A stretch of DNA of 63,970 bases, the filler included, from Circinaria calcarea (lineage: Eukaryota), in NCBI GenBank assembly GCA_051942165.1. It is 6 parts of 6 records of this genome, joined end to end, with 100 filler letters (N's around TTAATTAATTAA, not from the genome) between each part and the next. Parts side by side here need not be neighbours in the genome. Positions count along the whole stretch, not along the records: positions 53,421 to 63,970 come from JAVECS010000794.1; 5 more parts are not named here. One strand, written 5' to 3'. Of this stretch, positions 2,677-63,970 are shown piece after piece. The translations under genes and the position numbers were made by a program. Within the stretch, counting starts at the first letter, position 1. The number at the start of each line of letters is the position of its first letter. The notes below the pieces were generated by a model. That model was not told where the DNA came from. It saw only the letters and a list, made by a program, of their open reading frames with translations, and did not search any database.

Positions 2677-3769
2677 TCAGAGGCGTTGATTGTACATAGC
2701 CTAGGATGGTCAAAGGACGGGAGCCGACCATGGAAGTATTGGTCACCATTCACGTCAACGGCCCTGGAACCGTCCCATATCAGCATCACCACGAAACGGA
2801 GCAAGACCATATCTTGTCTGATTGAATCGTCTCAACTCTCCACCTCATTTACCTAGAATGGGTTGCAGCGGCTGCTATCCAACCCTACCTCGAAGGTCCG
2901 AAATAACCCAGACAATCAAAATAAGGTTATTCCCGAGTTGGTTTTCCTATGGCTCAACGCTGATCAGGCCCCATCGGAAAAAAAAAGTCTCTAAGCTCAC
3001 ACCAAGGGCGTTTGAGAACTTTGAAAGCACCCAGCCCCAGAACCAATAGCCTTCAACAGTTTGCATCCGGTACATTTGCAATAGGTGGATTTTAAACTGT
3101 CGCGGCCTGGCACTTTGACTCTCTCCCCGCCTGCGCTGCCAGCATCCCCACCAAACCGCCACCGCCAAACTCCAATGGCAAAACCGACCACCTGGCACCA
3201 AATGAGGTAGCCGGCCAAGGACAAGGGCGGAACTGCGGGCTCCCTTTCCCTACCCCGCCCTGACCTCGTGTCACGGCAGAGTATGGATCAAGGAATAGAA
3301 TTGATTAATTCTACGACTGTCTATTCTGGGGCTATATAGCCCCGCAGGCCTGCCTGCTCCTTCCCATAACACCTCGGGACGAGTACCTTAAGCAACCGTA
3401 CCCCGGACTGTGATAGTTGGTATTTACGGAAGGAAAAAGCCAAGGAAGGTGAAGGGAGGAAATTTGGGTTTTGGGTTCGCTCTCATTCCGTTTCTTCCAT
3501 GGCTTACTTAGAATTACTAGAAGAGGCAGATTCGGACGAGAGGGGAAAGGGAGGGGGGTTTCCCTGTTCCCGGACTGATGCGAGATTTGGAAGATTGGAG
3601 ATGAGTTTGCGAAGATGTGGGGGTTAGGTTGCTTTATAAGTGAAAAGGAAGTCTTAGGGGTTGGATTATTTAATTAATACAACTCGAATTTTGATAATGG
3701 GGGTTTATAACAGGCCTGAGCTTATCTTGGTTGATGAGAATGAGCATATAACGCTTTACGGTAGCAAAG

Positions 3770-5810
3770 CAAAAAGGTACATACACCATAATGGAAAATT
3801 GTACATGGGAGAAATGATTGGGAGTAGTAGCTTGCTAATAATGTCTGGGTGATTAAATAATTTCTCGACTAATATCATATTGTCCATGCTTTAATTCAAT
3901 CCGAATGTACTCACCCACCCACATTTCGAGTCGATATCTCGCACCCTAAACGCTTTCCGGAACCGCCTCGACTCTTTCCTTAGGTACAAGAAGGGGGCAT
4001 CTTAAAAGGATAAGAGGTAGGCAGCGCACCGAAAAGGAAATCATCGAGATAGATTGGGGTATTCGGCACCCCGGCCGGGAAGATGAACGTGAACGTCACG
4101 ACACCCGATGTGGTCCCGGAATAATCTTGTCTGGTAATCTCCGAATAGCCCACGCCGTTCCCTCCCGGGATGGAGCAGACCCCACCGGGACAGGGTGATG
4201 AAATACCTCCGTAAGTGCGCGGCGGGGTACCGTCGTCGGCCTGGATCTCGAAGCTGTACTTGGAGTTGGCGTTGGTGGGATCTTCGAGGCCGATGTGGAA
4301 GGTGAAGACGTAGTCGGTAGTCGGGACGAAGCAGACTCGGGTGGTCAGGGTAACAGAGGTTCCGTCGTTGTTCGCGGATGGGCTGGCTTTGCTGTTTTGT
4401 GGACACGTTTAGCGCCAATTTACGGGAATAGGTTCAAGACGGAGCAGCGAACTGGAGTCCAAGTAGAAAGTAAACTTACAAGGCAGTACAATACCGATAA
4501 GGTATCGTACATTGCGAGCAAGTGCTGATTACCCCGTGGCTTGGGTCGAAGGATCCTTGACTGGCAGGAGCAAAGGACCTAAGAGGAAGACTTGTTATCA
4601 TTGCCATCCCCGAGGATCTAGGTTGATAAAGGATGAAACTCGGAATTCTAATCACCATATGTCATGCGATCGCTCAAAATCTGCGTCGGAGATTTGGTTG
4701 GGGTAACTCGCCCTCGAGTATACCCCAGGTGGCAATGGTCGCACCACAGCGGGCAACGATTTGGTGCAAGTGCTGGTCGGCGTTGCCAAAGTAGATGTGG
4801 TCGGAGTGGTCGCAATGCACGAGCATGCAGAGGTAACCCGGGAGGCTAAACCAGAACATGGCGACACAAAAGCAGGCGTACTCGTGGCCGGGGGAGTGGC
4901 CGCAGTGTACGTGGAACAAAAGGCGTAGGCCGCACCGTCAGAAGTATGGCCACGCAATGCGCGCAGACAGTTGTCGGCATTACATGCTGCAGAGGAGAGA
5001 CGAGGTAAGAGCAGGAGATAAGCGGACAGAACAAGCTTAACTGGCTGCATCATCATAGCTGCTTGTAAGACGTAGATACAAAGGCAGATGAATTCAGAAA
5101 ATGTACACAGTCTGAGAAATGTCTTGAAGAGAGGCACCTCAGCAAGACTTTAAGCGGTGGCCTGAAACCGTTAAAGGGTGGATCAAGTCAATGTTTGTAT
5201 GTATGCTCCGAGATCCTATACGGTATGCTTGTTTCATTCAATCCCACGGAACATTTTTCCAAGCTAAACATTCTGTCTTGCAGGCCTAGAACGCCAGCGG
5301 TTCGCGAAAAACGTGTCAGATGTACCAGAGCATGAAAGCAAGGTACTGCATATACGAGACAGATCATTGGGCACGTGGATTGGAGCTAGGGAGATCCCAT
5401 TTCAGACAGGCACACGCGAGAGAGCCGAGCTCAGAACCAACCAGAGCGTCATGTAGACGTAGATAGGCGAGTTTTGAGCCCTAATCATGCAGGCACAAAG
5501 CTTGCATTGCCAGCCTCACCGTAAAGTAGGATGTGGTAGTAGGAGTGATTAGATCATCCCGTCCACAGCCATAAAATCCCCGTATTGTCGCGAGCATCTG
5601 TGTCCACCATGCCATAGTTCCAGACCACCTCTGGCTATGGATTTAGCCTAGCGAGACAGCAAAATTGTACAGGTGGATCCAGCATTGCCAGATCTCATGC
5701 AAGCCTTTATTGGGCCAAGAGTTGATCCTTTGCCACTGTCGTTAATGGTCTGATATGAGTGGTTGAATCTTCGCATTGTCGGACGCACATTGAACCGTTC
5801 CTAGCGCACT
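3770..5810. repeat. Segmental duplication copy A (~2 kb); copy B at ~59952-62212
   Basis: Near-identical sequence from 'aaaggtacatacaccataatggaaaattgtacatggg' to 'aaccgttcctagcgcac' recurs on the last contig in the same orientation. Confidence 0.95.
3980..5056 (-). CDS. Secreted Cys-rich protein (signal peptide, CNADNC motif domain, Thr-rich linker, CBM-like beta-rich domain), 3 exons, copy A
   Basis: MMMQPVKLVLSAYLLLLPRLSSA is followed by ACNADNCLRAL...FCSTY...SRVTSACSC. Two GT-AG introns join exon 2 (SFAPASQG...CSQCTIPYRYCTA) and exon 3 (KASPSANND...IYLDDFLFG...CT*) in frame. Confidence 0.85.
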
Positions 5811-6930
5811 CGACCTCGCCTCGGTTGTACCAAATACAATACCTTATTGCCTACAAAGTACAAACAGCTCGGGCGAGAATACACCGGGCTGGTATTTTAC
5901 TACACGGTCCGTTTTAATATAAAAATAAAAATTAGGGTCGGTATTAATTATAACACGGCCCTTATATATTCTAGCCCGTGTTATTAATATTTTATATAGA
6001 GAGTGTAAAGCACGGATTATGCATTACCCGTAGATAACACATGATTCGGTAAGCCCAATTCCTTCCAATATGAGGTCCGGTATTACGAGGTGTGAGCAAG
6101 GAGAAGATAGTGGAGGCAGGCGTGCCAAAAAGGAAGAGAGAGAGATAGTGCACAATTTCATTAACGAGGGTTTGGGGTACGCGGTGGTAGATATTTGGCC
6201 TCGCTCGAGGAAGCCGAGGATTGTTAAATTCTGGCGGTGGAGAGGTGACGATAATGGGGACGATGCAGGAAAGCGAGTGAAGAGGAAAGGAAAAAATGAT
6301 ATAGGATAGGTAGGAAATTATATGATGGGCGAGGAACCCTGCATAGTTTAGCGGTTGTAATTGAAAAGGGCGAGGGAGATTTGGATATCGTTTAAATCGT
6401 GGCGATAATAACTGCTATATAATATGACGATAGCTAAATGCTCAGCATAAAGCGAAGAGAGAAACACGTATCCCGAGCTGGATTAAAAGCAAGGCCTCGA
6501 ATAGTTTAGCCGGTGTAATATGAGCTATCTGCACTGCACTTTACGGCCAGTGGAGCCCTATATATAAGCCTTGTAAGCCCACTAGCTACTTCAACCCCCC
6601 GCTTTTTGTGGGAATTCACCCTGTAGACGCGATTAGGCTTAGCGGCGTGTTGCTTTCCATAGCATAAAAGGCGAGCACGCATTATAGGAATGCAAGCAAC
6701 CTTCATACGATGTATGCCAATAAGCCTTTGTCCAGCACTTTTATCCCTGGTGGCTCAATGCCCGATAACCGAGCCTGTTCACCCTTACTTAGCGAAATGG
6801 CTGCACGGATAGTGTACACTGTCGGTCCAGTTCGGGACCTTTGCGCTGCACTGACAGTGTAGTCCGGAGGGTCAAACTGCTTAGCCGGTGCAGTGGCAGC
6901 CTTGCGTGAAATTTACAAAAGCTCAAAACT

Positions 6931-9900
6931 TTAATTGTTTGCACCAGATACACTGAGGGCTTCGTAAGCGAATTTCGTCTGCAATGCCGAGATTACCACA
7001 GAGGAAAAGGCTAGGAAGAGGCTGATCCCTCCAAATACGACAGCGGCCCACAAGGTGTACCATGACAGTGAATCGCGACGGTCACGCCATAGAGCATAGA
7101 TGCCCCTTTTGCTTTCTTTAGTAAATTCTGCGTTTTAGCTGTATGGAGGGTGGATACCAACCTTGGCTTCGTTTTCTCCATGTACCACTGGATTTCCCGC
7201 AGCCGCTCACCGAAAATAGGGTAGTTTGTGAAGTCCTCCATTTCGTTCAAGTTGGTGCTCAATACCGCTTCGTAATGCGTAAGCGTAGCCTGAAGATAAG
7301 GTGGGGAACCTTTCATTGTGTCTTTCATTGCCCGAGGCGTCTGGCTTTGCATACCCAAGTTGTAGGGAGTTGGAAGGTCACCGTAGCACTCATTGATCGT
7401 ATAACCGTCAAGGACACTACTGAAGTCCAAAGGAGTCGTCTTCCCTGACGCTTCAAGATCAGCTTTCACTGGTTGCCGGCGAATTTTTGAGATAATATTC
7501 TGCCCGAAAGTCGAGGTTGTGCGTCGCGATGCCTCAAAGAGTACAGCATATGTTCTCTTCAATTCCACTATCTCTGGCCAGCTATGTAAATCGGGAAAGT
7601 ACCCATCGAGAATCCACATTAGACCCGGGTCCCATAGAAGGTGAATAACCTGGCCACCTTGAAGCGTATTCTTCATTCGAAGGTGATTATCAAAGGTATC
7701 AGTCCACTGAATCTCAATTTTGCCAATATCCATGAGAGCTTTGACCGATAAATGGCTTGCAGCGAAAAGGGGATTTGAAGTCTTTCCTAATCTGCGCCAC
7801 AACGCTGTCCGTTTCGTTGATGCATTTTCCATTACTTGATTGACAGAAAGTTCTGCGTCGTCCGCTGTCCACTGCGTGTCGCTATGTCTAATTAGATCTG
7901 TTTCATTCCAGTTGTAATTCAGCGCACAGAACACTGCGTAAATCCACCTACGATGGGACTGGGCGAGATTAACCTCGTTATTTTTAGGCTCTGACAGAAC
8001 TGCACGACGGTAGTAGAAGTTCTGCAGCTTCCACATTGGCCAATCGATTGGAGTTACCGCATGGATTTCCGAGACCAGGTACTAAACCTCCGCAATTCTA
8101 ACCCGATATGTATCAACATCATCACCATTATAGCAAAATTGCTCAGCGGGTCTTTTATATAATCTTTCGCAGCCATAAGCCTTCCAAGGATTCGCAAAAG
8201 ATTGGCTGAAACCGAGAACTGGTAGTCTGATTGTGTCATATTGAAGATACATGGTCTTGATGGGTCACTTTGTGGTGTCGACTGCAGAGTGAAGGTTTTG
8301 TAGCGCGGTGATGTTGGATGGAACAAGGACACCATAAGGTCTTCCAGCACTAGATCCACATTGACTTTAAAAGTATCCCAGATGCGTGTAGCCGAAGCAT
8401 CAAAGATAATCTTGCATGCAAGCTCCCACCACTCATCTCGGAATCCTCCAGGCTTTTTGCTGGTATTACGCACCGGATCTTCGAGAAATAATGCTATATA
8501 CTCTAGTCAACCAGGGTAAATTTTAAGAAAGCAACGCATTGCATTAAGCATATTTTATACCTTTGTATTCATTGCGCTGTCTGTTTTGGTTCTCAATAAG
8601 AGTTTTTAGGGTATCTGGCTGGATCTCCCACCATACATGGTTATGGTCCAACAGACCGTCCCGTTCGGAAGTAGGATAAGAAGCCTCGTTAAATGCTTGA
8701 TCTGGAATATCCAGGGTAATAGGTGGCCCCGGGCCAATAACGGTTGTGCTAGGCCTGCGGGTTCTTGCGATTATTTTAGGCTTTCGATTAGTTTCCTTGC
8801 CAGTATGTGATTCTGCTGCCGCTGATCTATTCCTACGCCTCTTGATCTCTTCAAAATTATCAGGCTGGGGCGCTGCGGCCCTAGAAGTCGACGCCAGACC
8901 TGGATTGGAAGCTAAATCTGGATTTGAATTAAAAGGCTCATCTGGAATTGGAGTTTTGCCAGGAATAGGCGAGTATCTTCTTGAGGGTTCGGAAGGGAAC
9001 GGGTTTACGTTTCCACTGTTGTATGGGGGATGCTGAGAGCTTATTTGGGGGTAATAACCATAAGAGGAATATCCAGGATTGTATCCGTACCCAGTAGAGG
9101 AGTACTCAGGATAGTAGCTGGGGAAGGAATAATTTTGTGGATATCCCTGAGGATGTTGAAAATATTGTCCCGGGTAACTTGGTTGCCCTGATGCCATAGT
9201 AGGGTAATAAGGAGTAAATAAAGGGGCAGGAGCCGGAGTAGGAACAGGAGCCGGGGTAGGAACAGGAGCCGGGGTAGGACCAGGAGTCGGGGTAGTAATA
9301 GGAGGCGGGCCAGCCACAGGAGAAGGACCAGTGGTGGCAGGAGAGGAAGTATCAGTACTATTAGAACACGTACTAACGGTACGGCACTGGCCAGCCATCG
9401 GAAGCACAGGAGTGCTAGCGGGGGAGGACGTGCTAGTTTTAGATGTCCTGAACTTGACAACGGGTTCTGACAGCCAGTCATCTGGTCTGATTTCATCGGG
9501 AGTCGTATTCTTAGGTTTCTGGAAAGCGATCTCCCCGTTTTCGCGGCGATTATCTAATGTGGTGCGATCCTGCGAAACTACGCTTATAGGACGGTGGATA
9601 CCTCGTTTGCCAGCTTGCGCTATTGCTTTTGCTTTTGCTTTACCTTTCTTGGTAAAGCTATCACCCCAATCATTTTCCCCGGCTGATTCTAGCTCCGGGG
9701 TCAGGAAATTGGCTGGCTCCTCATCAGTAGCGGGTTTTCTGTTTGTCTCTTCTTTATTCCTTTCTTCATGTTTCTTGCTAGCAACCTCATCAAAGCTCCT
9801 AGGATCGTCTATGGTAGGCTCAGATGCTTTCGAATTACTTGCAGGGAGGATAGAAGAAGGAAGCCCAGCAGTTGATCCAACCGAAGGCTCCAATGTTTGT

Positions 9901-10470
9901 GGAGTACTTGCGGGGATAATAGAGGAGGGAAGTCCAGCAGTTGATCCAATTGAAGGCTCCGGCCTTTGCAGAGTACTTGCAGCAACCACAGAAGATGAAA
10001 TACCAGCTGTTGATCCAGCTGAAGGCTCCGATGTTTACGTTGATTCCGAAGTCTGTGTAGTCAGTGATATGATGATTGAAGGTAGCCCTCCAGTCGATGC
10101 TACTGAAGGAGCAATGGACACACTCAACGAAGGCTGCTCGACCGCTGTAGCGGCGGTAGACAAGGTTGGTTCAGATACGGACGAGGAACCACTGCTCGAA
10201 GACTGGCTGGTCGAAGGTTCGGCTGTCTGGGTTAAGCTCGGTACAGAGCTGGAAGCAAGCTCAATTGAGGACTGTGATGATAGCTGAATCTGTGTGTTTG
10301 TCACTGTCAAAGAAGACTGGCTGGTGGTGCCAGAGGCCGATGATTCCATCAATGTAGAAGCCGGCACACCACTGCTACCTAGTACACTTGTAGATTAGGC
10401 ATTCCCTAAAGTAGATAGAGAAACCAGGGTAGCAATTTCCGTCGTACTTAATAAACCTGCTATAGTGGCT
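6931..10470 (-). pseudogene. Disrupted gene: Ser/Thr- and Pro-rich N-terminus plus an uncharacterised fungal domain ending in a C-terminal transmembrane helix
   Basis: ORF pieces 10035-10367, 8544-9989, 8054-8473 and 7011-8036 join via in-frame TAA stops (10395-10397, 10035-10037), an intron (~8504-8560), and an apparent frameshift plus TAG near 8150-8080. A last intron leads to RGIYALWRDRRDSLSWYTLWAAVVFGGISLFLAF...*. The 5' end is uncertain. Confidence 0.7.
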
Positions 10471-10489
10471 GAAAAACTTTATACCATAT

Positions 10490-10594
10490 CTTAATAAAAC
10501 AAATATTTAGCTGATAATAAATTAAAAATTAATTAAATATATAATAAAAAAAATTTAATAATACGTTTTTTAAATTTCTGCGAGAAAAAATTTA
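10490..10594. repeat. Very AT-rich contig end, probable RIP-degraded repeat
   Basis: Almost pure A/T with TpA excess, at the point where the assembly breaks. Confidence 0.55.
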
Positions 10595-10694
10595 NNNNNN
10601 NNNNNNNNNNNNNNNNNNNNNNNNNNNNNNNNNNNNNNTTAATTAATTAANNNNNNNNNNNNNNNNNNNNNNNNNNNNNNNNNNNNNNNNNNNN
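10595..10694. other. Artificial contig spacer
   Basis: N44-TTAATTAATTAA-N44 (stops in all six frames). Confidence 0.99.
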
Positions 10695-13518
10695 TTCCCT
10701 CCAGTACCCTCAAACTCTCCATCTTCTCCAACACCAGCTCCAGCATCTCCTTCCTCCGGATCACATCCAAATGCCCTCTGACCTTGGGGTCCTCGCGCGC
10801 AAAGCGTTCGATCTCGGCATCACTAAGGTGGCGTCCCAAGCGTGCATCGAGCTCGCGCGGGAAGTTGTAGTAGAATTCGGAGAGGAGCTCGACGTTGAGG
10901 AAGAGGACGGCGGTGGAGGTGAGTTTATCGGCAACGACGTCGAGGAAGATTTCGGGGCAGTAGTACTTGTTGGCCTTAGTGGCGCATTGCTTCGAGCGGA
11001 GGGCGAGGAGGCGCATTTGGAGGATAGAAGCTCGGTCGCGGAGGAAGACGGCTTCTCTTCCTATACAATTCATGGTTTAGTAACAGGATACTATTTAGGG
11101 CTCTCTAGATAGAACGTACCTTTTTGAAGTAAAGCGGCGCTGAAACCTCCAGCGCCGCCGCTGCCATTACCTTCTAGTATTACTTCGCCCTTACGCACCC
11201 GGTCTATGAAGTTCATAACATCCTTTAGCTTCTTCCTACCGCCCACAGCCTCCTCAACTCCTTTGGCCGCAGTTTCGCACGCTTTGAGTTCGTTTTTTAG
11301 TACGCTGGCTATGTTTTGTCGTCCCTTGGCCCATTCTGCGTCCTCTACTTCGATTTCGAATTTGTAAGGCTTAATGCAGTTTTCGACTTGATCACTTGTG
11401 CTGTAGAATCTCTCATTCAAGATGCTAGATGCTGCGCTAGTGATGGCTTGTCGAGCAAAAGGGTGGACTGAAAAGGTAGAAGAAGCAATAAGCTGTTCAA
11501 CCTGAGATTGAAGAGCGTTTGCAACGACAGTGGTGGCTAGACGACCAATGCCTAATTTGGTAAGGGTCGAAGTTGAAGCATCTAGTTTTCGATGCCAGTA
11601 AAGTGATTCAGGGTCAGCGTTGGGAAGATCGCTTAGTGGGTCTCGTTCAATAGGTGAAGGCTCAAGGCTTTCGATGGGTTTGTTCCAATATCGTTGAGCT
11701 AGAAGGTCAAGTATCCGCTGATCGAGCTCCTGCTTAAGAAGAGTACGAACTTGCGATCGTCCGAAAGATTCTGTGAATTCCTTGAAAGAATGCTTGAATG
11801 CATCCAAACTCTCGGCTAGGTATGATTCAGCGCTCAGAGGACGATCATTGTATTGTACCTTGAACTCATATGCCGCTTCTTCAAGCTCTTGATGTATAGC
11901 ATCGCTTGAGCCCTGTAAACTTGCCGCCATGGTCTGCTCTAGGACTTGCATAAGCTTCTTACGCAGGGTAGTCGTACCAACGGCGAGATCAGATTCACGG
12001 CCGAACTCCAGAGGATGCGCTGAGAAGTAGGCGTTTTCATTCTTAGTGATTGCATTAGTAATGTTTCCATTACCTTTGGAGAAGAGACTGGTTGCTTGCG
12101 GTACCCGAGTCACAACGCCGACGTAACCAAGCCTTAGTGGATATTTCTTGTCACTAAGAATACTGGCTCCTCTTTGAGGGTCAACCAAGTCCATCTTAGT
12201 CACCACTCCTATGGTCCGTTCACCACGAGGATCAACCCTCCTGCTTGCACGTAATGCGGTAGAGTTTGCAAGATCGACATCAGCAGCCGAAATTGCCAGG
12301 ATCACATTTGGTGGCAGGAGATACCTATCGCACAGGTTCACAATCTTTTGCTTCAACTCGGGTGGCTGGTCAAGCCCGGATACTTGTATGTACCCGGGTA
12401 GATCAATCAAAGAGAGATCAGGCACGTTAGGTGAATATATGGAAAGTTGGATAGGATCATCCGAGACACAATCCGCTGCTGGTACAGCGAGGTTGAGATC
12501 TGTTAGGGTCCTTTGGATTTGCGAGAAGTCGGTAATCTTTCCCAGGCCAAGTGCAGGAAATTCGCCGTATTCGGCCTGCGCATCAGGTGTGTTAACCAGG
12601 GTCAATTCGATTGGCCGTCGAGTCATCATGTTTGCTCCTTTGGGTAAGAATTCATGGCCTACGATTGCCTCTAAAACCGAACTCTTTCCCGAAGACTGCG
12701 AACCAATCACCACGATAGAAGGCAATGTCAAGGTATTCGACTGTCCAACCGTCTGCAGGATGTTGCGTATCTCAATCATCTTCTTAGTCAACATCATCAT
12801 CTGATCGTCCCTAGCAACCTCCTGCCCCGATCGTTCATCGTCCTCGGGCGATTGGGTGTATCCAAAAGCTGCGCCAGTACCGATAACTGCTGCGCCTCCA
12901 ACTTTGCTTTGCTTGGGTGATTCACCTCCATCACCTGATGGGCCTCCGTCCGAAGAGGAGCCTTGGTCCTTGCCTACCAAAGTTTGCAACCATTCCGGCA
13001 ACGCCACGTTCTCCTTCGTCCTTTCCCAACCAGTCCTTGTCTGTTCAGCGATACCCTTGGCACTCTCAAACAATGTCCCAGCTGCCCCGCTTGCCGTGTC
13101 CCCTACCCGTCGAAAGATGTCCATGGCATAGTTTCCAGCCTCTGTTGATTATTGTACATTAGCAGTCGTACAAGGCCCGAACCTGCAATAACATACGTGT
13201 AGCTTGATATTGAATGTAGGCCAGACCTGCTATGGCTGCTCCACCAAACATTGCGGGTATTCTTAGAAATTTGACAGCCAGATTTGGGAGAGCCCTGGCA
13301 AATGAGATGTTTCGCACTGCAGGGACATCGTGAAGGGAGTATGCGCCGAACGGCCATGGTCGCTTTCTAAAGTTCCTTGAGCTTTGTGGGGTTCGCAACA
13401 ACCCACCAGCATGTGTATGTGTATAGTGGAGAGGACGGTGAATCGTATGCTGTGACCGATGAATCCGCCATGCAGAGGGTGGCGCGGAGAGCGGGTTAAG
13501 CAATCTTCGCCCGCTCAT
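10695..13518 (-). CDS. MGM1: Mitochondrial dynamin-like fusion GTPase Mgm1/Msp1 (3'-truncated)
   Basis: Arg-rich presequence and hydrophobic anchor (MFGGAAIAGLAYIQY), G1 GSQSSGKSS, G3 DLPG, G4 TKMD, C-terminal FAREDPKVRGHLD. Introns near 13142-13197 and 11063-11118. Confidence 0.95.
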
Positions 13519-14332
13519 TGCTATGTTTGGTGCATGATAGGAACTTTAATGTGAGTAAATCTTGTCATCAAAAATCTTTCTTCATAGAAGATTGATTCTA
13601 CGTTTACTTGGACTTGAGTTTGGTTGCGGCTAACATTTAAAATCCGCGATGTCAATTCTCGTACCCCTGCCTCGGGCAGGTAGACCGAGCTGCCGGTAGG
13701 GCTACACATCGCTAGACGTTTGATGTCCATCCCATAATATTGCTGCTCAGCCGTTTGGAGTATCCCCTGTCCAGAAAAACTGCTTTCGCGATTAAAACCG
13801 CTATTGATAGTCTTGGTTATCTCGCAAAGGTTTTTTTCCCAAACGCATGGTCACCCCTCCCTGCAGCTTTCGGTACTTACTTTTACCAATGGATAGGTGG
13901 TTTTTAAAGACGAAAAACGTGGACATCCATCATGGATGGCACTTTCCATGCCACTTCGGGGCGCCTGGAGGGGCCCCCTTGAGGTTAATTCCTTACGAGC
14001 TCAGCCCTTTGCTCCTTTTTCTTCCATTTCACATCCGTCGTAGCTGACGGGGAGACCTTAAGCCTCTGGTTGGGTGAGATGCATAGCCAGTGGCTTTAGC
14101 AGCGGTTATGGGAAGCCTTGTGTGGGCACTAGGTGAGAGGACAAGCTAGTCTCTCAAATCTCGAGTAGTATGATTCACACAAGTCCTTTTAAATTTCGAG
14201 CTTCAGAGCCGCTATCTATTCAGTACTTTACTATTACATCTACCAAAACACCACCTACCACCCCATACCTCCACTCTCCAAATAATCCCATTTCCCTTCA
14301 CGCCTTTTCCTCTTCCCCCATCCACAGTCCAC

Positions 14333-53420: not shown

Positions 53421-53765
53421 GCGGTCGAACCATCCACCGAACGCACACATAGCAGAGGTTTTCTGCTATGCAGTTCCATAGTGAAGTCCACACACATAGA
53501 CTGGTAGTTACCATAGCCAATACAGCCTATTCCACCCTGTATTACCTCCATTATTTCACAATTTATTAATAAATAATTATGGTACGGCTATTTTAGCTAG
53601 CGGCTTTTATTTCTTTTTACGGAGATCGCTTTAAAGAAAATCGGACCCCGAAACTGCGCCTATACTTTTATTACATGCCCCACGACGTTTTAGCGCTTAA
53701 CACAGAAGTTTATCTTCATTCACCCGCAACCTGCATCTTTGGTAAAGCACGCAGCACTGTTCAGC

Positions 53766-54797
53766 ATGGCGTTTATTCGGGCCTTGTGGTTAAATTTCAA
53801 GGATGACTTCGGCGACCTGCTGGAGGCAACCGATTTCTCGGTCGTAACATGGTTGGCGTTAGGAGCCGGTCTACAACTACTGAGCCAATCGTGGCTACCA
53901 TCAGGCCTGAGCTACTGGCTCCCGCTTCTTTATCTCATCTATCGCGCTACTAAGGCGACCATTGATTGCCGTCGTATCTTCACCGGCACCTTCGACACTA
54001 TTATATTTGGACGGTGGTCGGCCACATTTCCCGAGCTAGAAGATCCGTCAGCCGCCACTGCGACTTCGGACGGCGTTGTCTGTTTCTTACTTGGGGCGCG
54101 CATCAATCAGTTTGTACCTCTGTTTACGCCGAGAAGGCGCGTTCGAGTCGACAGTATTTTGCTGACATACCGCAGTCCTCTAGGCAAGCTTGCGCCCGGC
54201 AATGCCGAAATCGATAAAGTGTTCAAGGACATGTGGGTCGAGGCGGAGAAGAATCGAACCCAATGGTCCTGTAAGTTGCAACACCGACCGCTTCTTTTGC
54301 TTGCGTCCCTCAGCTCAATCTCATCTATTGGGTCTCTACTCAGATCTCGGGAGAACCGCCACCTTGTTCGATATTTCGGATCATGAAGGGATTACCAGCT
54401 TCTGGGTTTCGTATTGGAAGGATCTCAAGGGCCTTCAGGCATTCGCAACTACATCTGCCCACCGTCTAGGCCAGAATGCCTACTTGAAGGGCAGGTATCC
54501 GTATATGGGGATCATGCACGAGACCTATCATTCGCCAAAGGGCTGCTGGGAGACTATCTATGACAACGTGCCACCTCTCGGATTAGGTAAGTGAACATTT
54601 CAAACGCTGCAGCATTGGAAAGTGTGTTTGGTTAACCGCTGTGAAATTCTACAGGAAATGCTAAGTATGTGATCGGAGAGGGACCGAATGGCTTTAAACT
54701 GGGAGATCTACTTAAGCCAAACCCTAGAACGTCGACGATGTATAGTCGAATGGGTAGGGAGAAGGAGAAGCGAGAGGAAGCTTCAAAGGCGGATTAA
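53766..54797 (+). CDS. DUF4188/af470-like monooxygenase, multi-exon
   Basis: N-terminal membrane helices, VVCFLLGARIN, PLG.LAPG, SYWKDL.GL..FA...AHR, GIMHETY..P.G.WETIY.N..P.GLG. Confidence 0.8.
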
Positions 54798-54915
54798 ATT
54801 GATCCTAATACTAAGCCTTTTTTATTAATCTTTTCGACTCGTCCAGCTGTAGTGGCTGCGGTTTATAGCTTATTATGGAAGATCTTCCGTCATAGTGGTG
54901 GTGTCTTCCCAAGGG

Positions 54916-55315
54916 TGTTATGGCGCCACGCCATAAGATGCCACACCAAGGTCCGGGACGGAGGAACAAGGAGCCGGATGCTCCCAGTGCTCCCAGTGCT
55001 CCCAGAACTTGGCAGCAGGAGCACCAGGAGCAGGGTACGTGATATGCTCCGGGTGCTCCCAGTGATTCCACTAGGGATCAGTAGGAGCCGCGGGAGCTAT
55101 ATAAGCAGGATATTCCCGCTTATTAAAATAGCATATTGATAGACTGTAATAAAATAATAATCGGACCACTACGCTTGACTAATCGTGCACTACGGAGTGA
55201 TTCTATCCTTTATACCAATTTGGCTTATCCCAGCACCCTTACATCGGAGTCCGAAACGATGTATCTGCTGAAGTCGCCTCGGGCCAGAATACTATCCGCT
55301 ATAGTTGCACTAACA
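54916..55315 (+). mobile_element. Solo-LTR-like relic
   Basis: Begins TGTTA and ends TAACA, with internal gctcccagt tandem repeats and a tatataagcagg TATA-like box. No target-site duplication seen. Confidence 0.5.
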
Positions 55316-55483
55316 TATATTAATAGCTGGGATGCTGGTTTAGTAATATGCGCACCAGACTCTACTACGCCATATAGTACTCGCTGCACGCAGTGTTATA
55401 GAATCTGGAATTCGCAGCTATTAACCCTCAGTCCTCCGGCAGTTAACTTTGTTTTGCCAAAAACCTGAATTCTATCGGATAAC

Positions 55484-56716
55484 ATGAAGAATAAGCAGCA
55501 GTTTCGCGGTAAGGTGGGAGCCCAGGTCACGAAACTTAATAGGATAGCACAGTTTTGACGCATTTACAGACCGTGTTTGTCGCGGGTGGCTCTAGTGGAC
55601 TAGGTAAAGAAATATCAAAGGCATTAGCAGCTCAAGGTCAGCGACTGTACCCAGACAGTGATGTCCCGCTTAATAAAGGGATGAGATAGGCGCTCATATT
55701 ACAATCTTCGCTCGCCGGCAGGGACCGCTGAATGAAGCCAGAAATGAGATCCTCACTGCAAGGCAGGATATAGAACAGGAGGTGCACGCAGTACCGCTTG
55801 ACCTGGGAAATCCATCCCAGGTTCGATCGACTCTCCGAATCAAGTAAATCAGGTTTCGTCGCAGACTGGCTGATTGAGAGTGCAGCTTGATACGATCTTC
55901 CGGTCCCAAGCTCGACTTCCAGATATTTTATACTGCGTAGCAGGCGGCACCTCGACGGAGATTGGATTTATAAAAGACATTGATGCAGCAGATTTGGAAA
56001 GCTGCATGCGAAAAAATTACTTCACCGCCGCATACTCTGCACAGTCTATACTCAAAATATGGACAGAAGATGACCAAAAAACCACGACGCCAAGCTCTAG
56101 GCTTCGTCAAATCGTGTTTATCAACAGCGCCGCAGCGTTCGTGGGTATACCGGGCTATGTTGCCTACACCTGTAAGTTGAGCGCAAGGAGGAAGTACCAA
56201 GCGGGCTACCCGTTGACTTCACATCAAGCTTCAAAGTGCGCCGTGCGCGGTCTGGCAGATACGCTGAGGATGGAAACTCTCCGCCTCTCGAGCCCCGCAT
56301 CCACTTACACGATCCACTGCGCGTTTCCTTCCAACTTCATCACTACGGCGTTCCTCGAGGAGCAGATATCGAAACCGGAGTTGACGAAGCGGATAGAAGG
56401 CACGACGGGGACGAGGGCAGAATTGGAGCAACGATACCCCTCGGCGGAGCAGGTGGCCCAGGGAATCATTGCTGGTGTGGCGCGAGGCGATTTTGCGATT
56501 TGTGACGACTCGATGGAATCCGGCTTGCTCTTCGCTAACATGATCGGTCCGTCGCCCAAACGAGGTCGTGGTGTTGTTGACTCGCTGCTGGCAATAGTCA
56601 TGGGCCTATTTATCTGGCCTTTTCTCAGGAGCCGCTGGGATAAGATGTGCAAACGAGATCGTCTCTATTCAGCCGCACGTGATAATATAGATGGAGAGGC
56701 GCAGGCAGTAATCTAA
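55484..56716 (+). CDS. 3-ketodihydrosphingosine reductase (TSC10)-like short-chain dehydrogenase, multi-exon
   Basis: TVFVAGGSSGLG, IFARRQGPL, LYCVAGG, NYFTAAY, IVFINS, GYVAYT|SSK.AVRGLADTLRME, IHCAFP, EQISKPELTK.IEG, C-terminal PKRG plus hydrophobic helix. Confidence 0.88.
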
Positions 56717-57376
56717 GGTGATCTTTACTCATAGACCCTTTAAATCGCAATTATAACGGCAATAATAATAGCTATCACCTCGCATGCGTACGCCTAAGCA
56801 GCGTGGTAGTTCAAAATAAAATATCGGTAATTATATACTTGAATTTCCTCACGCGATCTCCGTTAGGCTTAGCGGACCCTTTTTTTCTTATGATTTTGTA
56901 GTTTCTAATAACGTTAATAGGAGTTGAACCTAATTTCAGTAATATCCCCTTCTGTCGAACTTAGCACTATGCACGTGAGCTCGCGAGTTTGGACACGAGA
57001 GTTCAATAAGCGAGGTATTAGCGCCTTCGCGTCACACACATAAAAGCGTTGTTTCTCTCTCCCTAATACTATAAACTCTTCATAGATTCCGAAGTGAACA
57101 CAAATTGCACTCGAATCACTACGTATGAACTGCCTCACATACTGCATTGTGCTCACGTAATAGAGACGTGATTCAGTGCCTACTTATTATACTTTACCGC
57201 GAGTATTCAGAGGACCAGTAAAGTTCGACACCTTATTTCGATTGCGCTCCCACGCGCTTTCCTAATGCACCTCCAGTCCTTCCGCCTCCGTCCAGCATCT
57301 TTGGGTTCGATAAGTCGTTGGTAAGTTGACCGTGCTGCTCTGACGATCAGCTCTCTCTCGCCCACGGGGTCCCCGA

Positions 57377-58749
57377 CTACCCCGACGCAAGCCTTCTCGT
57401 TAGAACACCAAACTGTTGCATTAAGGACCTGACGAGCTGTCGGAGATTCCCATATTCCGCTCCATCATGGCCCCATGATGGCTTCCCGTGTCGGCTCAAA
57501 ACTCCGCGCTCAACCCTCGAGATTATGACTTTTAACAGGGCACTGATTCTGTCTAGCTTCCTGGATATCAATGCTGTTTGGACAAAGCTACATTCCTCCT
57601 CCGTCAGCTCGTGTCGGCCCATGGCCATTCGGAAATTTGGACCACGCTTGCTGTGGGGATGACACTGGCCCTGGGACCAGGTAAGGATCGTTTGGAATAC
57701 CATAACGAGCTGCATCGCTACGTAGGAGTCGTGCAGACACTGGGTACATCTTAATTGGTTCTCGGTGACATTCAAGACCAGGTTCACGCAGGTAACAAGG
57801 GTATCTGCCTGGACGGGGTATTGGCGCTTCTCGATCGTCTGAAGCTTGCACAGAACATCGGCGTACTTCCGCAGGCACCGGCACAGTGTCGGCTGTTGTT
57901 GTTCAAACTGTGTGATTGTGGATCCAGCCGTCTCTTCCAGTCGCGCCGCGACAGTATCCAGAGAGATGGGCTTGTTAGTCCCAAACATAGAGGAGTGTGA
58001 GTATGAGAGCGGCAAATCTAGACAGTCTCAATTTTCTTCCTTTGAAGCCAGTACCTTGTAGAACATACCGGTGTCTGTGGAACCTGAAAAGAACTGCTGG
58101 TTCATGCTTGGTGATGATGACTGGTTCGGCATTTAGTCAATGGAGGCGCACAACGAGGACGAGCACTCACATTAAACCAATCATCTGGAGCATCTGCCCA
58201 CGGCCTTCGCGACTCTAGTTCTTTAAGCTCCTCGAAGTCAGGAAGCTCTAGGTCTGCAGCATAAAGGGCTAATCTGTCGCCACCCTCAAAACATGCATCA
58301 TCATCACCATCAGGGAAGTCCTGTTCGGGGGTGAATATGGACTGCGATAGATCGGGAAGACTGATCGGGGGGGATTGAGGCCGAAAATTCGATGTGCTGG
58401 ACATCTGAAGTGGATCGAGAGAGTCGTCGCCGCCTTCCCGGTGCTCGCTCTCAGTATCCAAGGCTCCGTGACCATCGTTTCTGCTGCCATTGCTTTGGGG
58501 GATGGAGGTATCGCCGCCCCCGCCGCCTCCGCCGCTGATATCCTCCAGACTCCCTTCTTTTGCCTGGCGCAATCTCTCAAGTGTCTTTCTGTTCTTGCAT
58601 CCCGGTGGTTTTCCAGTCCGCCTAGCGAGGCTGTAGTGACAGTGTTGGGGGCTGTCGGTGCACCGCTCGCACGGAGGACCTCCGCCAGAACACTTCACCT
58701 TGCTGGTATGGCACTGGTCGCAGGCAGCTTTGTGCTTGAAAGCGCGCAT
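57377..58749 (-). CDS. Zn(II)2Cys6 pathway-type transcription factor
   Basis: CDQCHTSKVKCSGGGPPCERCTDSPQHCHYS followed by GKPPG.KNRKT. One intron (~58084-58170), and an AflR-like C-terminal region with a CxxC. Confidence 0.9.
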
Positions 58750-58966
58750 CTTCCCTTGTCCCGCCTCTGGTCTCGAGTGTCCAGCAGCTGCTTCAGCATG
58801 TTGAGAGAAGTGAAGGCGATTGCGCAATAATATCCTGCGCCCATCGCCTCGCCACCGGGGAGCGACATGCGAGTTAAGCAAGCTGAATCTAGTCCCCGCT
58901 CCAGGCCTGCGCCGAGCTGAGCCAGCTCAGGCAGCTGAGGCACAGCTGTGTACCAAGACACGCAAA

Positions 58967-59043
58967 TGCCCTAAAACGAAGTGAAACGAAGTGGAAGGGT
59001 TTAATTTGGGCGGGAGATTTTCCGAACCGAACCAAAATTTTGC
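58967..59043. repeat. Short dispersed repeat shared with 39771-39847
   Basis: See partner feature. Followed by local direct repeats (attaaccttccatattcagcatac-like at ~59307 and ~59410). Confidence 0.55.
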
Positions 59044-59473
59044 GGTATTCTCATTCTGTGTGAAGACGGATGCATAATACAGGGGCATGGCAGGCCTAGT
59101 ATGGCGCATTTCGCACGAATGACACTGAATGCCCTCCGCTATTGCCACGAAAACTGAACCATAGCCCTCTATCATAGTGCGCGCTCCGTGTATTATAGCC
59201 AAAATCCATGCCTTTCGTGCCTTTCATGCCTTCCGGGCCTTCCGCCCTCAGTGTAACGTTGCAATCAGGCCCTCGGAATACGTCGTATTGTGCGCCGAAC
59301 CAGCTAATTAACCTTCCATATTCAGCATACCCCTCTATCAATATACCCTGCAATCATGCCTTCGAATACGCCGCCGAACTATATCTTCCAGAATATACCG
59401 AACCGGCGAATTAACTTTCCATATTCAGTATACTTTTCCGAATTTATATTATTTATATAATAATTCGAGCTAG

Positions 59474-59809
59474 TATTATAGCGCCAGCACCATGACATGT
59501 ACTACACCAGGAGAGGAGTTAGTGCCGGGACGGACTAACCTTAACCCAGTGCTCGTAAGTGCTCAGGGCATGAGCATGGATGAGCAGGGTCGGCGCTCAT
59601 GGGTGCTCAGGGCATGAGCATAGATGAGCAGGACTTTATATAAGCAGGCTGTTCGGCGCTCTTTAGAATAGCATGCTTATAGAACCATAACGAGTTCAAT
59701 ATACTCCTTTGATATTGAGCCTAGGGCAACAGTTCAACTACACCGTGCTAGTACCAATCGGGACTTATCATATTCCTCAATAGGCCCCAAGGATTGCAGC
59801 GCCCTTACA
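59474..59809 (+). mobile_element. Second solo-LTR-like relic related to 54916-55315
   Basis: Start tattatagcgcca versus tgttatggcgcca; shared tatataagcagg...aatagcat block; internal direct repeat gtgctcagggcatgagcat.gatgagcagg x2; ends ttaca. Confidence 0.45.
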
Positions 59810-59951
59810 ATAAGCGTATGATTTATTGCTAAAACCTTTCTCGCTAAGCCAACACCTCGTGACCTCGGTGTATAATTCCCCCGTAGGGTTCGTAGGGGTT
59901 CTCGGGTAGAGACCTTTATAATATTATAAATATTTTATTAATAAATTAAGC

Positions 59952-62212
59952 AAAAAGGTATATACACTATAATGGAAAATTGTACATGGGAGAAATGATT
60001 GGGAGTAGTAGCTTATTAATAATGTTTGGGTGATTAAATAATTTCTCGACTAATGTCACATCGACTCTGCTTTGTTCAATCCGAGTAGTGCCGGTACGCC
60101 CGCCCTTCGAGTCGATGTCTCATACCCTGGAGGCTTCCGGACCGCCTCGAATCTTTCCTTAGGTACAATAAGGGGGCATCTTAAAAGGATAAGAGGTAGG
60201 CAGCGCACCGAAAAGGAAATCATCGAGATAGATCGGGGTATTCGCCACCCCGGCCGGGAAAATGAACGTAAACGTCACGACACCCGATGTGGTCCCGGAA
60301 TAATCTTGTCTGGTAATCTCCGAATATCCCACGCCGTTTCCTCCCGGGATGGAGCAGACCCCACCGGGACAGGGTGAAGAAATACCTCCGTAAGTGCGCG
60401 GCGGGGTCCCGTCGTCGGCCTGGATTTCGAAGCTGTACTTGGAGTTGGTGTTGGTGGGATCTTGGAGGCCGATGTGGAAGGTGAAGACGTAGTCGGTCGT
60501 CGGGACGAAGCAGACTCGGGTGGTCAGAGTAACAGAGGTTCCGTCGTTGTTCGCGGATGGACTGGCTTTGCTGTTTATGGACACGTTTAGCGCTGTTTAC
60601 GGGAATAGGTTCAAGACGGAGCAGCGAACTGAAGTCCAAGTAGAAAATAAACTTACAAGGCAGTACAATACCGATAAGGTATCGTACATTGCGAGCAAGT
60701 GCTGATTACACCGTGGCTTGGGTCGAAGGATCCTTGGCTGGCAGGAGCAAAGGACCTAATAAGAAAATATGTTATCATTGCCATCGCTAGGGTATTGGTT
60801 GACAAAGGATGAACTCGGAGTTCTAATTACCAGATGTCATGCGATCGCTCAAAATCTGCGTCAGAGATTTGGTTGGGGTAAGAGGCCCTCGAGTATACCC
60901 CAGGTGGCAATGGTTGCACCACACCGGGCAACGACTTGGTGCAAGTACTGGTCGGCGGTGCCAAAGCAGATGTGGTCGGAGTGGTCGCAATGCACGAGCA
61001 TGCAGAGGTAATCCGGGAGGCTAAACCAGAACATGGCGATACAAAAGCAGGCGTACTCGTGGCCGGGGGAGTGGCCGCAGTGTACGTAGAACAAAAGGCG
61101 TAGGCCGCACCGTCAGAAGTATGGCCACGCAATGCGCGCAGACAGTTGTCGGCATTACATACTGCAGAGGCGAGACGAGGTAAGAGCAGGAGATAAGCGG
61201 ACAGAACAAGCTTAACTGTCTGCATGATCATCATAGCTGCTTGTAAGACGTAGATATAAAGGCAGATGAATTGAGAAAATGTACACAGTCGGAGAAATGT
61301 CTTGAAGAGAGGCACCTCAGCAAGACTTTAAGCGGTGGCCTAAAACCGTTAAAAGGGTGAATCGAGTCAATGTTCGTATGTATGCTCCGAGATCCTATAC
61401 GGTATGCTTGTTTCATTCAATCCCACGGAACATTTTTCCAAGCTAAACATTCTGTCCTGCAGGCCTAGAACGCCAGCGATTCGCGAAAAACGTGTTAGAT
61501 GTACCAGAGCATGAAAGTAAGGTACTGCATATACGAGACAGATCATCGGGCATGTGGATTGGAAGGCTAGGGAGATCCCATCTCAGACAGGCACACGCGA
61601 GAGAGTCGAGCTCAGAACCAATCAGAGCGTCCCGTAGACGTAGATAGGCGAGTTTCCAGCCCTAATCATGCAGGCACAAAGCTTGCGTTGCCAGTATACG
61701 AGGCGGGTGAGCAAAATCGCTGCCGAAAATAGCAATATAGTGCTGGAGGACCTCTCACACAGAAATTATAGCTCTTCAAATAAAATAAGACCCCAAACGT
61801 AAATCGTCGCTCCAAAGACTCGATCAATAGGTAGTGGGAATGGAGCACCACTAATACACTGATTATCTCTTCATCGACAACGATTTCTGCACAGCGACCT
61901 CGATTGTAGGATGCGGTAGTAGGAGTGATTGGATCATCCCGTCCACACCCATAAACTACCCGTCTCATCGTGAGCATCTGTCTGTGTCCACCAAGCCAAG
62001 GGCCATAGTTCCAGACCAACCCTAGCGGTAAACTAAGCCTAATGAGACAGCACAATTGTACAGATGGATCCAGCGATGCCAGATCTCATGCAAGCCTTCA
62101 TTGGGCCAAGAGTTGATCCTTTACTATTGTCGTTAACGGCATGATGTGAGTGGTTGAATCCTCAACATTCTGAGCTCATCGTCGGACGCTCATTAAACCG
62201 TTCCAGGCGCAC
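59952..62212. repeat. Segmental duplication copy B
   Basis: Matches 3770-5810, with ~200 bp extra at ~61695-61905. Confidence 0.95.
60159..61234 (-). CDS. Secreted Cys-rich protein, copy B (3 exons, intact)
   Basis: Same exon structure and nearly the same protein as 3980-5056. Confidence 0.85.
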
Positions 62213-62503
62213 CAAGCGAGCCCGGTAAGCGCGTTCCGTAACCAACCTCGTCTCCATTGTGCCGGGTATCTTATTGCCTCCCTATGTACTGTGGTAGTCC
62301 TCCGCACGTAGTAGAGATTAGAACTTTTATCCTCAACTGTAGTACGCTCAAATAGTTGTAACATTCAACGTGATCAAGTTCCTGCCGGTAAGAGTCGGCG
62401 AGCTTATACTGGCAATTAGGCTATGGAGTAATACCCCTTGAATAGTCCGGCGCCTTATGCAGGATTAGTGTGAATATATTTAGAAATTAGACCTCATTCT
62501 CTC

Positions 62504-62622
62504 ACATACGACCATAGACTCAAGAGAATTGGGCATCCCGTCCGCTCTGCCATACACAAGCTTGAGATCGGCTGATTAGTAGTTGGGTGGGTGACCACCA
62601 GCGAATACCAGCTGTTGTATGT
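62504..62622 (+). rRNA. 5S rRNA (dispersed copy)
   Basis: 119 nt: ACATACGACCATAG...CCCGTCCGCTC...TTAGTAGTTGGGTGGGTGACCACCAGCGAA...CTGTTGTATGT with complementary ends. TATA-like element ~29 bp upstream. Confidence 0.97.
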
Positions 62623-62633
62623 TTTTGTTTTTG
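62622..62633 (+). terminator. RNA polymerase III oligo-T terminator
   Basis: tttttgtttttg directly after the 5S sequence. Confidence 0.85.
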
Positions 62634-63035
62634 TTGCCCCCAGGTCTCGAAGTGTATATTACACGAGTCTCTAACTTGCTGGTGTCTGTCGATGAACGGG
62701 GTGGACAAGGGCGATTGGTTGCTATGGCGAAGCCTGAAACTATACTACACCCTGGCATCCGTCTCACCCCGGATTTCCCAGGTATACAAGTTACCTGGCG
62801 GGGGGATGGGCACCCTAAATACTTGCAATTAAAGGCGGGTGAGTTCCAACAATACATGTGCTAGATGCACTTCCGATAGTACCACAAGGATCAATATCCG
62901 TGAAAATACTGCTATTCTTCTTCCATTACTCTGTACAGATGGCCGCAATATGCACATTCGTAAAGTTCTTGGACCCCAGAAATTCGTATTCATGCCCGGA
63001 ACACCCAATATCCGTGTGACCAGACTCAGCGCAGA

Positions 63036-63970
63036 CTACGTCTCCTCTTCCTCTTCCTCGTCGTCGAGTAACTCATCCAGGATAGAGTCCTTTACCTGAG
63101 TGGGTCCCTCATCTGCCACCATCTCCATCTTCGTTTCCTCTTCCGAACCCAGTGCTGGGGATTCTATATTCTTCTTTTCATCCTCCTCTTCATCCTCCGC
63201 TTCGTCTTCCATTGCCATGACCGTCTCATTTTCCCGGACTGTCACGCCTTCACTCGACTCCTTCTGCTTGTTGACTTGATTTTCGCCGATGACCTTCGCC
63301 ATGCTGGAATGAATCTTTGTCAAGGCGTTTCGAGATAGAGCATCACTGGCGATCTTGAGGTCAATGGCCTCAGCCGCGAGGTCGAATGCTGTTTGGATTT
63401 TTTCGGGATTGGAATTTGGGGTGATATACAGCTTGGCCAGCATAGGGATCAGGACCTTCTTCTCTTCTTCTGTTCAACATGTTAGCAGTGGTCAATCAAG
63501 TTCCTGTCTTATTTCTTACTTGGACAGCCGTGACCCATCGCCTTCTCAAGTAAGTTGCTTGCTAACTCGAGGTGGATGTCTCCATTGACAGCTTTCATTT
63601 CCTTCTTTCCTGCCTCATCCCAGCTCACGTTTGCATCGTCATGAACCACTAATTTCCTGGCGTCGGTCCAGTCGACTAGCATGTTCACTACCACGCCCAT
63701 TCCTACCATCTCTTCCTCTTCGTCCATATCCTCTCCCAAGTTGATAAGGTTATGAAGCACACTCAATGCTACATTACCCATCCTTTCCATGTTTTCTCGT
63801 CGACTGTGACAGTATACGGGGAGAAAGTAGCTGAGGGCTTGCCTTACCCCGACGTTCTCCTTGGTACCCGGCTCAAAATAGCACACGACAAGCTGTTTGA
63901 GAAGATCCTCATCTTCGATGATAGTGGTAAGCATGAGCTTGCAAACGGCAATTGTGGCAGCGGACTGGAC
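63036..63970 (-). CDS. YCG1: Condensin subunit CAP-G (Ycg1/Cnd3), 3' part
   Basis: CKLML...LLKQLVVCYFEP.T.EN.GVRQALSYFLPVYCHS, MLVDWTDARKL, DALSRNAL.K, acidic tail. One intron (~63470-63519). Confidence 0.88.

Follow-up and report, generated by a model that had tools for sequence, protein, structure and literature searches.

Myriocin, the lead compound behind fingolimod, is one of the sphinganine analogues. The sphingofungin cluster (sph) of Aspergillus fumigatus, one of the closest described systems of this sphinganine-analogue (SAM) type, comprises a highly reducing polyketide synthase (HR-PKS), the α-oxoamine synthase (AOS) SphA, a KDSR-like short-chain dehydrogenase/reductase (SDR), a major facilitator superfamily (MFS) transporter and a Zn2Cys6 regulator, all of which have counterparts in the lichen genome considered here. 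In the myriocin family (myr), split subclusters occur as well, and Clade I likewise lacks myrC (PMC13612406; this and the other papers cited here are drawn on in part). This kind of cluster is already known, and a probable Cladonia orthologue has been on record since 2020 in the form of its three core genes, the SDR ANM86481, the aminotransferase (AT) ANM86484 and the polyketide synthase r-pks-4 (ANM86485) of Cladonia uncialis, which Kim et al. list as SAM1-like (PMC7376913, Additional file 7).

The present analysis concerns a window of 63,970 nucleotides of Circinaria calcarea (GCA_051942165.1), i.e., the whole stretch analysed, made up of contigs of about 10.6 kb each with N spacers between them (N44-spacer-N44), the last of which is the 10,550-bp contig JAVECS010000794.1 (C794; positions 53421-63970). 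Near the left end of C794 lie three genes, encoding a DUF4188 protein, an SDR and a Zn2Cys6 regulator, which quite likely represent, by the pathway proposed below, the half of a lichen SAM-type cluster that is responsible for tailoring and regulation, with the core on another contig, C266. The genes of both contigs probably form a SAM cluster that is related to, and not the same as, those of sphingofungin and myriocin, with a sphingosine-like product.

Three genes and their described counterparts

The initial annotation had described three intact genes over 53766..58749, a span which starts and ends exactly at two ATGs (those of the DUF4188 and Zn2Cys6 genes), and this is confirmed by Pfam and by the spliced models, all three of which have GT-AG introns, a proper start and end and no internal stops, while annotated products for two of the three are present in the protein collection.

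The first gene (53766..54797, plus strand; exons 53766-54109, 54176-54270, 54344-54586 and 54655-54797) encodes a putative oxygenase of 274 aa which, as had been proposed, belongs to the af470/DUF4188 family, given its score of 53.5 bits against PF13826 (cut-off 25). The protein is 78% identical to C. uncialis ANM86482, and named orthologues are found in Lasallia, Peltigera, Hypocenomyce, Cladonia and Pseudocyphellaria (72-84%) and in Glarea (67%), with three distant paralogue matches elsewhere in the C. calcarea genome. The orthologues of Peltigera, Lasallia, Hypocenomyce and Cladonia (P0136, P0218-P0221) fall into one 90% cluster, at 86-91% to the Lasallia protein, a likeness that, despite the distant hosts, suggests either strong constraint or horizontal transfer.

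A fold model of the Lasallia homologue P0218 (84% identical to the C. calcarea protein; pLDDT 89) consists of an N-terminal helical hairpin and a single ferredoxin-like barrel domain, and has its best structural matches among the aldoxime dehydratases (7f2y: Z 10.9, rmsd 3.5, 146 aligned), with cofactor-free ABM proteins level with them (Z 10.8-10.0). The family profile aligns two histidines, His186 (kept in 86 of the 88 aligned family sequences) and His205 (kept in all 88), with the two OxdB histidines equivalent to the haem-proximal His299 and the distal His320 of OxdA (HMM E 4.6e-5), and phmmer with the DUF4188 homologue as the lone query returned no real PDB match. While OxdB and OxdRE share the barrel and the two aligned histidines, the C. 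calcarea protein differs from them in having one domain plus the hairpin, at 14% identity. The enzyme is probably membrane-associated and haem-binding.

The counterpart of this enzyme in sph had been taken to be SphC, which by gene order is presumably AFUA_3G14710. The equation does not stand, as SphC is a Fum3-like protein (PMC7376913) and MyrC a phytanoyl-CoA dioxygenase homologue (PMC13612406), both unrelated to DUF4188; SphC is cytosolic and performs C-4 hydroxylation (PMC10936153). A search for SphC-type PhyH dioxygenases (PF05721) gave no match on C794 or C266, and matches on five other contigs.

The second gene (55484..56716, plus strand; exons 55484-55513, 55570-55636, 55690-55820, 55886-56171 and 56229-56716) encodes a SAM-type 3-ketoreductase of 333 aa, with a glycine-rich motif, a YxxxK motif and a hydrophobic helix at the C-terminus, which among PDB structures matches TSC10 best (8jat, E 2.5e-13) and whose identity is 73% with C. 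uncialis ANM86481 and 55% with NFIA_062510, the A. fischeri orthologue of SphF. It is not the sole TSC10 relative of this genome: with the Cladonia SDR as the query, only two loci came up, a SAM-type reductase and a TSC10-like gene, the latter being cut by the end of its contig (C3017), 32% identical to the SDR of the trio and higher-scoring against 8jat (77 bits over 156 aa, versus 53 bits for the whole trio SDR). By these sequence comparisons, the trio SDR is a KDSR-like reductase distinct from the housekeeping TSC10. In trees made by quick methods, including FastTree, it groups with Cladonia, Alectoria and further sequences (SH-aLRT 96-97, for a group named after the first tree was seen) and falls outside the 100-supported SphF/MyrF clade, and forcing it as the sister of SphF is rejected (AU p 1.9e-6), so that its proposed identity with SphF had to be abandoned. 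By analogy with SphF, which backs up TSC10 (PMC10936153), it may also serve as a backup of TSC10 for self-protection.

The third gene, on the minus strand (57377..58749; exons 58749-58171, 58120-58069 and 58017-57377), encodes a Zn2Cys6 regulator as claimed (PF00172, 33 bits), with a length of 423 aa and an AflR/CcsR-like C-terminus (score 0.96), whereas regulators of the SphG/MyrG type have 728-786 aa; its reading as SphG fails on this comparison of length and C-terminus. C. calcarea differs from sph, in sum, in its AflR-type regulator, its extra DUF4188 and rhodopsin-domain genes and the separate clade of its SDR, and a gene-for-gene mapping onto sphingofungin fails.

The curvulamine/bipolamine cluster, compared by description only, was discounted in view of the KDSR type of the SDR; the roles of CuaA-D are given in secondary passages, and a figure key names FAD and PLP enzymes.

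A probable polyketide core on a second contig

An HR-PKS and an AOS had been predicted beyond the left end of C794. Both exist, on C266, which carries, in this order, an AOS gene (465 aa), an HR-PKS gene (2568 aa), a fungal-rhodopsin-domain gene and an MFS gene, although no end overlap joins this contig to C794. The PKS is intact, with the domains KS-AT-DH-MT-ER-KR-ACP, being highly reducing and without a release domain, and has a degenerate methyltransferase motif, as in the myriocin PKS. The AOS that adjoins it, a PLP enzyme of the class II aminotransferases, scores 389 bits against SphA (9pep), versus 266 bits for the AOS on contig C80, where the only other HR-PKS and AOS pair of the genome is found. 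Seven pocket residues are named for MyrA (PMC13612406), and six of them are kept at the same numbers in the C266 AOS (N63, H152, M209, D237, K271 and R413), with N in place of A at position 231. The matching HR-PKS and AOS, together with the distinct KDSR-like SDR, bear out the proposed membership in a SAM-type cluster.

The absence of a transporter, an acetyltransferase and a P450 from the segment agrees with what was seen on C794, i.e., no transporter, acyltransferase or P450 in 14 + 5 selected ORFs. Similarly, the 28 kb of C794 and C266, with the gap between the contigs unseen, showed no SphH/MyrH P450 or SphE acyltransferase and, as a difference from the myriocin clusters, no MyrC or MyrH. 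The gene set had been called reduced, but there is more to it, namely the MFS transporter on C266 and a tailoring enzyme with no counterpart in sphingofungin.

Given the nearness of the AOS to SphA, the dead PKS methyltransferase shared with MyrB and the SAM1-like classification of the Cladonia cluster by Kim et al. (PMC7376913), the locus might be read as a true orthologue of the sphingofungin or myriocin clusters, in which the DUF4188 enzyme would perform the C-4 hydroxylation of SphC and the product would be a sphingofungin of known type. This is improbable, however, as in the FastTree analysis the listed SAM1 aminotransferases belong to a clade that excludes the AOS, just as the SDR lies outside the clade of SphF and MyrF, the PhyH, P450 and acyltransferase functions are missing from the scanned sequence as described above, and the cytosolic SphC contrasts with an enzyme that has an N-terminal helical hairpin and a different fold.

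The reading of a related, distinct cluster shared between C794 and C266 is supported by the palindrome TCGG-N3-CCGA, a putative cluster-regulator site that fits the motif TCGG-N3-SCGA which AflR promoters have in common (PMC12501005). On C794 it occurs at 53641..53651, 125 bp upstream of the ATG of the DUF4188 gene, and at 55244..55254, 240 bp upstream of that of the SDR gene, and on C266 it precedes the AOS gene (-211 and -275), the MFS gene (-190) and the divergent pair of PKS and rhodopsin-domain genes. Six sites thus precede six cluster genes, all of them 125-350 bp upstream of ATGs. As the genome has 97 TCGGRNYCCGA sites in total, 0.09 would be expected on the 28 kb that hold six of them (P 5e-10), and a still narrower pattern has more than one site only on C794 and C266, among 38 contigs. 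The 36 other contigs with this narrow motif were searched for further regulon members and yielded no gene evidently of the cluster; roughly half of the sites fall within long ORFs.

The rhodopsin-domain gene (PF20684; C266 11696-13100) is also found beside KDSR-like genes in four of 13 metagenome loci tested (L066, L069, L070 and L072, of which L069 and L070 appear to be one locus), and may be a recurring member of SAM clusters.

A second line of evidence comes from the relatives. The DUF4188 orthologue of C. uncialis, ANM86482, is numbered between ANM86481 and ANM86484, which places SDR, DUF4188, AT and PKS within five consecutive accessions; given this, the 73% and 78% identities of the SDR and DUF4188 proteins and the similar length of the PKS (2559 versus 2568 aa), the r-pks-4 cluster is probably orthologous to that of C. 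calcarea, although the table of Kim et al. names the SDR, AT and PKS only, without DUF4188, regulator, motif or product. Close orthologues also occur on contigs of identical size, in 14 cases for AOS and DUF4188, nine for AOS and SDR, 12 for DUF4188 and SDR and four for all three, where a jitter null gives at most 3 in 20,000. This comparison used distinct longest contigs of at least 4 kb (47 for AOS, 34 for SDR, 97 for DUF4188), the AOS list being the best 120 of 1235 hits kept at an identity of at least 79%, the SDR list the hits of at least 65% minus four named non-lichen or own rows, and the DUF4188 list all 97 hits, with cluster members added. Among AOS hits on contigs of at least 5 kb, six of the 20 with at least 79% identity share their contig size with a DUF4188 hit, versus none of the 78 below. 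The SDR, AOS and PKS genes, which are on different contigs in C. calcarea, are thus clustered in C. uncialis and, as judged by shared contig sizes, in relatives. A metagenome scan yielded 39 loci, with a DUF4188 gene in none of the 13 best (tblastn), no relatives were found in the genome and viral contig collections scanned, and the Glarea genes GLAREA_0578x/0579x are not present in two supplements of PMC3672099.

Several points weigh against joining the two halves. The motif centre and the narrower pattern were refined after the six sites had been seen, the unrefined motif giving P ~1e-6; three other loci likewise carry two sites; and in the window alone two sites versus 0.94 expected are not significant. 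Some shared contig sizes reflect one species seen twice, and such sizes bear on linkage indirectly, while the probable orthology of the Cladonia AT and PKS to the C266 genes rests on size, class and co-occurrence. The end-overlap search found no overlap joining C266 to C794, both of which end in repeats, and the AOS-side end of C266 overlaps exactly, over 141 bp, the end of C1292, a contig with an ATP13 gene, which could reflect either a genuine junction or an artefact of repeats. As a result of this overlap and of the repeats at both contig ends, the cluster may be split in this genome, and the direct adjacency of C266 and C794 is a possibility we lean slightly against.

Such a separation by repeats, which also lie between the genes, could have left the pathway silent or in decay in C. 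calcarea, as the overlap with the unrelated C1292 would allow. This is a decidedly slim possibility, however, since each of the five genes with modelled splicing (the trio and the C266 PKS and AOS) is intact and none of the six regulator sites has been lost.

Proposed pathway and alternatives

In the pathway that the two contigs would encode together, the C266 PKS, its methyltransferase dead, would build a long unbranched acyl chain, which the AOS would free by condensing it decarboxylatively with an amino acid, aminomalonate being the likeliest, as for SphA and MyrA, and serine the alternative. The SDR, presumably anchored in the endoplasmic reticulum, would reduce the 3-ketone to yield the amino-alcohol head, after which the DUF4188 enzyme would oxidise the tail of the chain, with a remaining C=C bond as the likeliest target. 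The MFS protein would export the product, a sphinganine analogue unlike sphingofungin and myriocin, and the AflR-like factor would turn on both halves through TCGG-N3-CCGA.

The leading guess for the DUF4188 step, held tentatively, is a cleavage by analogy with Fma-ABM, the PF13826 enzyme of the fumagillin pathway, which oxidatively cleaves a polyene chain (PMC7020470, PMC11727611). Both would tailor a polyketide chain late, and the likeness to af470 is drawn through the Pfam family rather than by direct sequence comparison. The substrate of Fma-ABM is a conjugated polyene ester, whereas the C266 PKS has an ER domain, so that few double bonds are expected in its chain.

There is little reason to suppose that the core makes another compound derived from an amino-ketone, short-chain or cyclised as in curvulamine, or that the DUF4188 protein is a lyase or dehydratase. 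Fungal AOS enzymes do also make indolizidines (PMC13113314, PMC8597713) and aldoxime dehydratases are among the closest solved folds, but a KDSR-family reductase, a SAM hallmark (PMC7376913), travels with the cluster, and the sole characterised PF13826 member found is an oxidative cleavage enzyme.

The least credible option is that the trio works with the pair on C80, which has no KDSR-type reductase of its own, as the 26 kb of C80 hold no palindrome and its AOS sits on a long branch away from the rest, with the AOS sequences linked to DUF4188 falling beside that of C266.

The C80 cluster (L043-L044) is a SAM candidate in its own right. Its AOS (3516-4568, minus strand) is divergent and lacks N63, and the methyltransferase motif of its PKS (~6200-13900, plus strand) is intact. 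The cluster further includes a separate methyltransferase, an SDR, an ABC transporter and an AMP-binding gene, and its product is possibly a methyl-branched SAM. In addition, SphA-like AOS genes of 57-71% identity occur in Psora, Icmadophila, Endocarpon, Bathelium and several Teloschistales (P0254-P0320), where no DUF4188 link was detected, and suggest further types of lichen SAM clusters.

Flanking features and wider meaning

The left end of C794 is a dispersed repeat at an assembly break (53421..53560), with 39 other matches in the genome (81-100%) and exact end overlaps of 91-92 bp with three different contigs. The relic between the DUF4188 and SDR genes (54915..55243, plus strand, about 330 bp), which had been described as resembling a long terminal repeat (LTR), is indeed solo-LTR-like, given its TG...CA ends and 32 other partial copies dispersed in the genome (68-86% identity); no target-site duplication was seen around it, and the palindrome at 55244..55254 is missing from both other repeat copies inspected. 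Further along the contig are a second solo-LTR-like element (~59473-59809), 86% identical to a copy on C266, a probable secreted Cys/Thr-rich protein on the minus strand (~60159-61228) with no Pfam or NCBIfam match and Atlas hits all below 0.9, a dispersed 5S rRNA gene (62504-62623, plus strand; RF00001, 76 bits) and the 3' part of a condensin subunit gene on the minus strand (~63036-63970; PF12719 Cnd3), which forms the right-hand boundary of the cluster.

As far as the literature searched goes, the new elements are the DUF4188 tailoring step, with histidines that match a haem site, the type of regulator and its motif, and the spread across lichens, although the original description of the C. 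uncialis cluster may already mention the monooxygenase. No paper combining "lichen-forming" with "sphingofungin" turned up in that search, only the three-gene Cladonia listing, and the main text of PMC13612406, in the part drawn on, does not mention lichens, Lecanoromycetes, DUF4188 or af470.

A bolder and rather unlikely extension is that many unrelated lichen fungi share a conserved SAM pathway that evolved separately and whose DUF4188 enzyme would carry a His-ligated haem and cleave or oxidise the lipid tail, yielding an undescribed class of sphingoid acids, the first sphingolipid mimics of lichens, possibly aimed at the sphingolipid synthesis of the algal partner or of competing fungi. The cluster is small, with five to seven genes and a predicted regulator site, and could easily be rebuilt in a laboratory host, which would test whether lichens make sphinganine analogues and whether the proteins of the DUF4188 family, with one characterised member in the literature searched, are haem enzymes.

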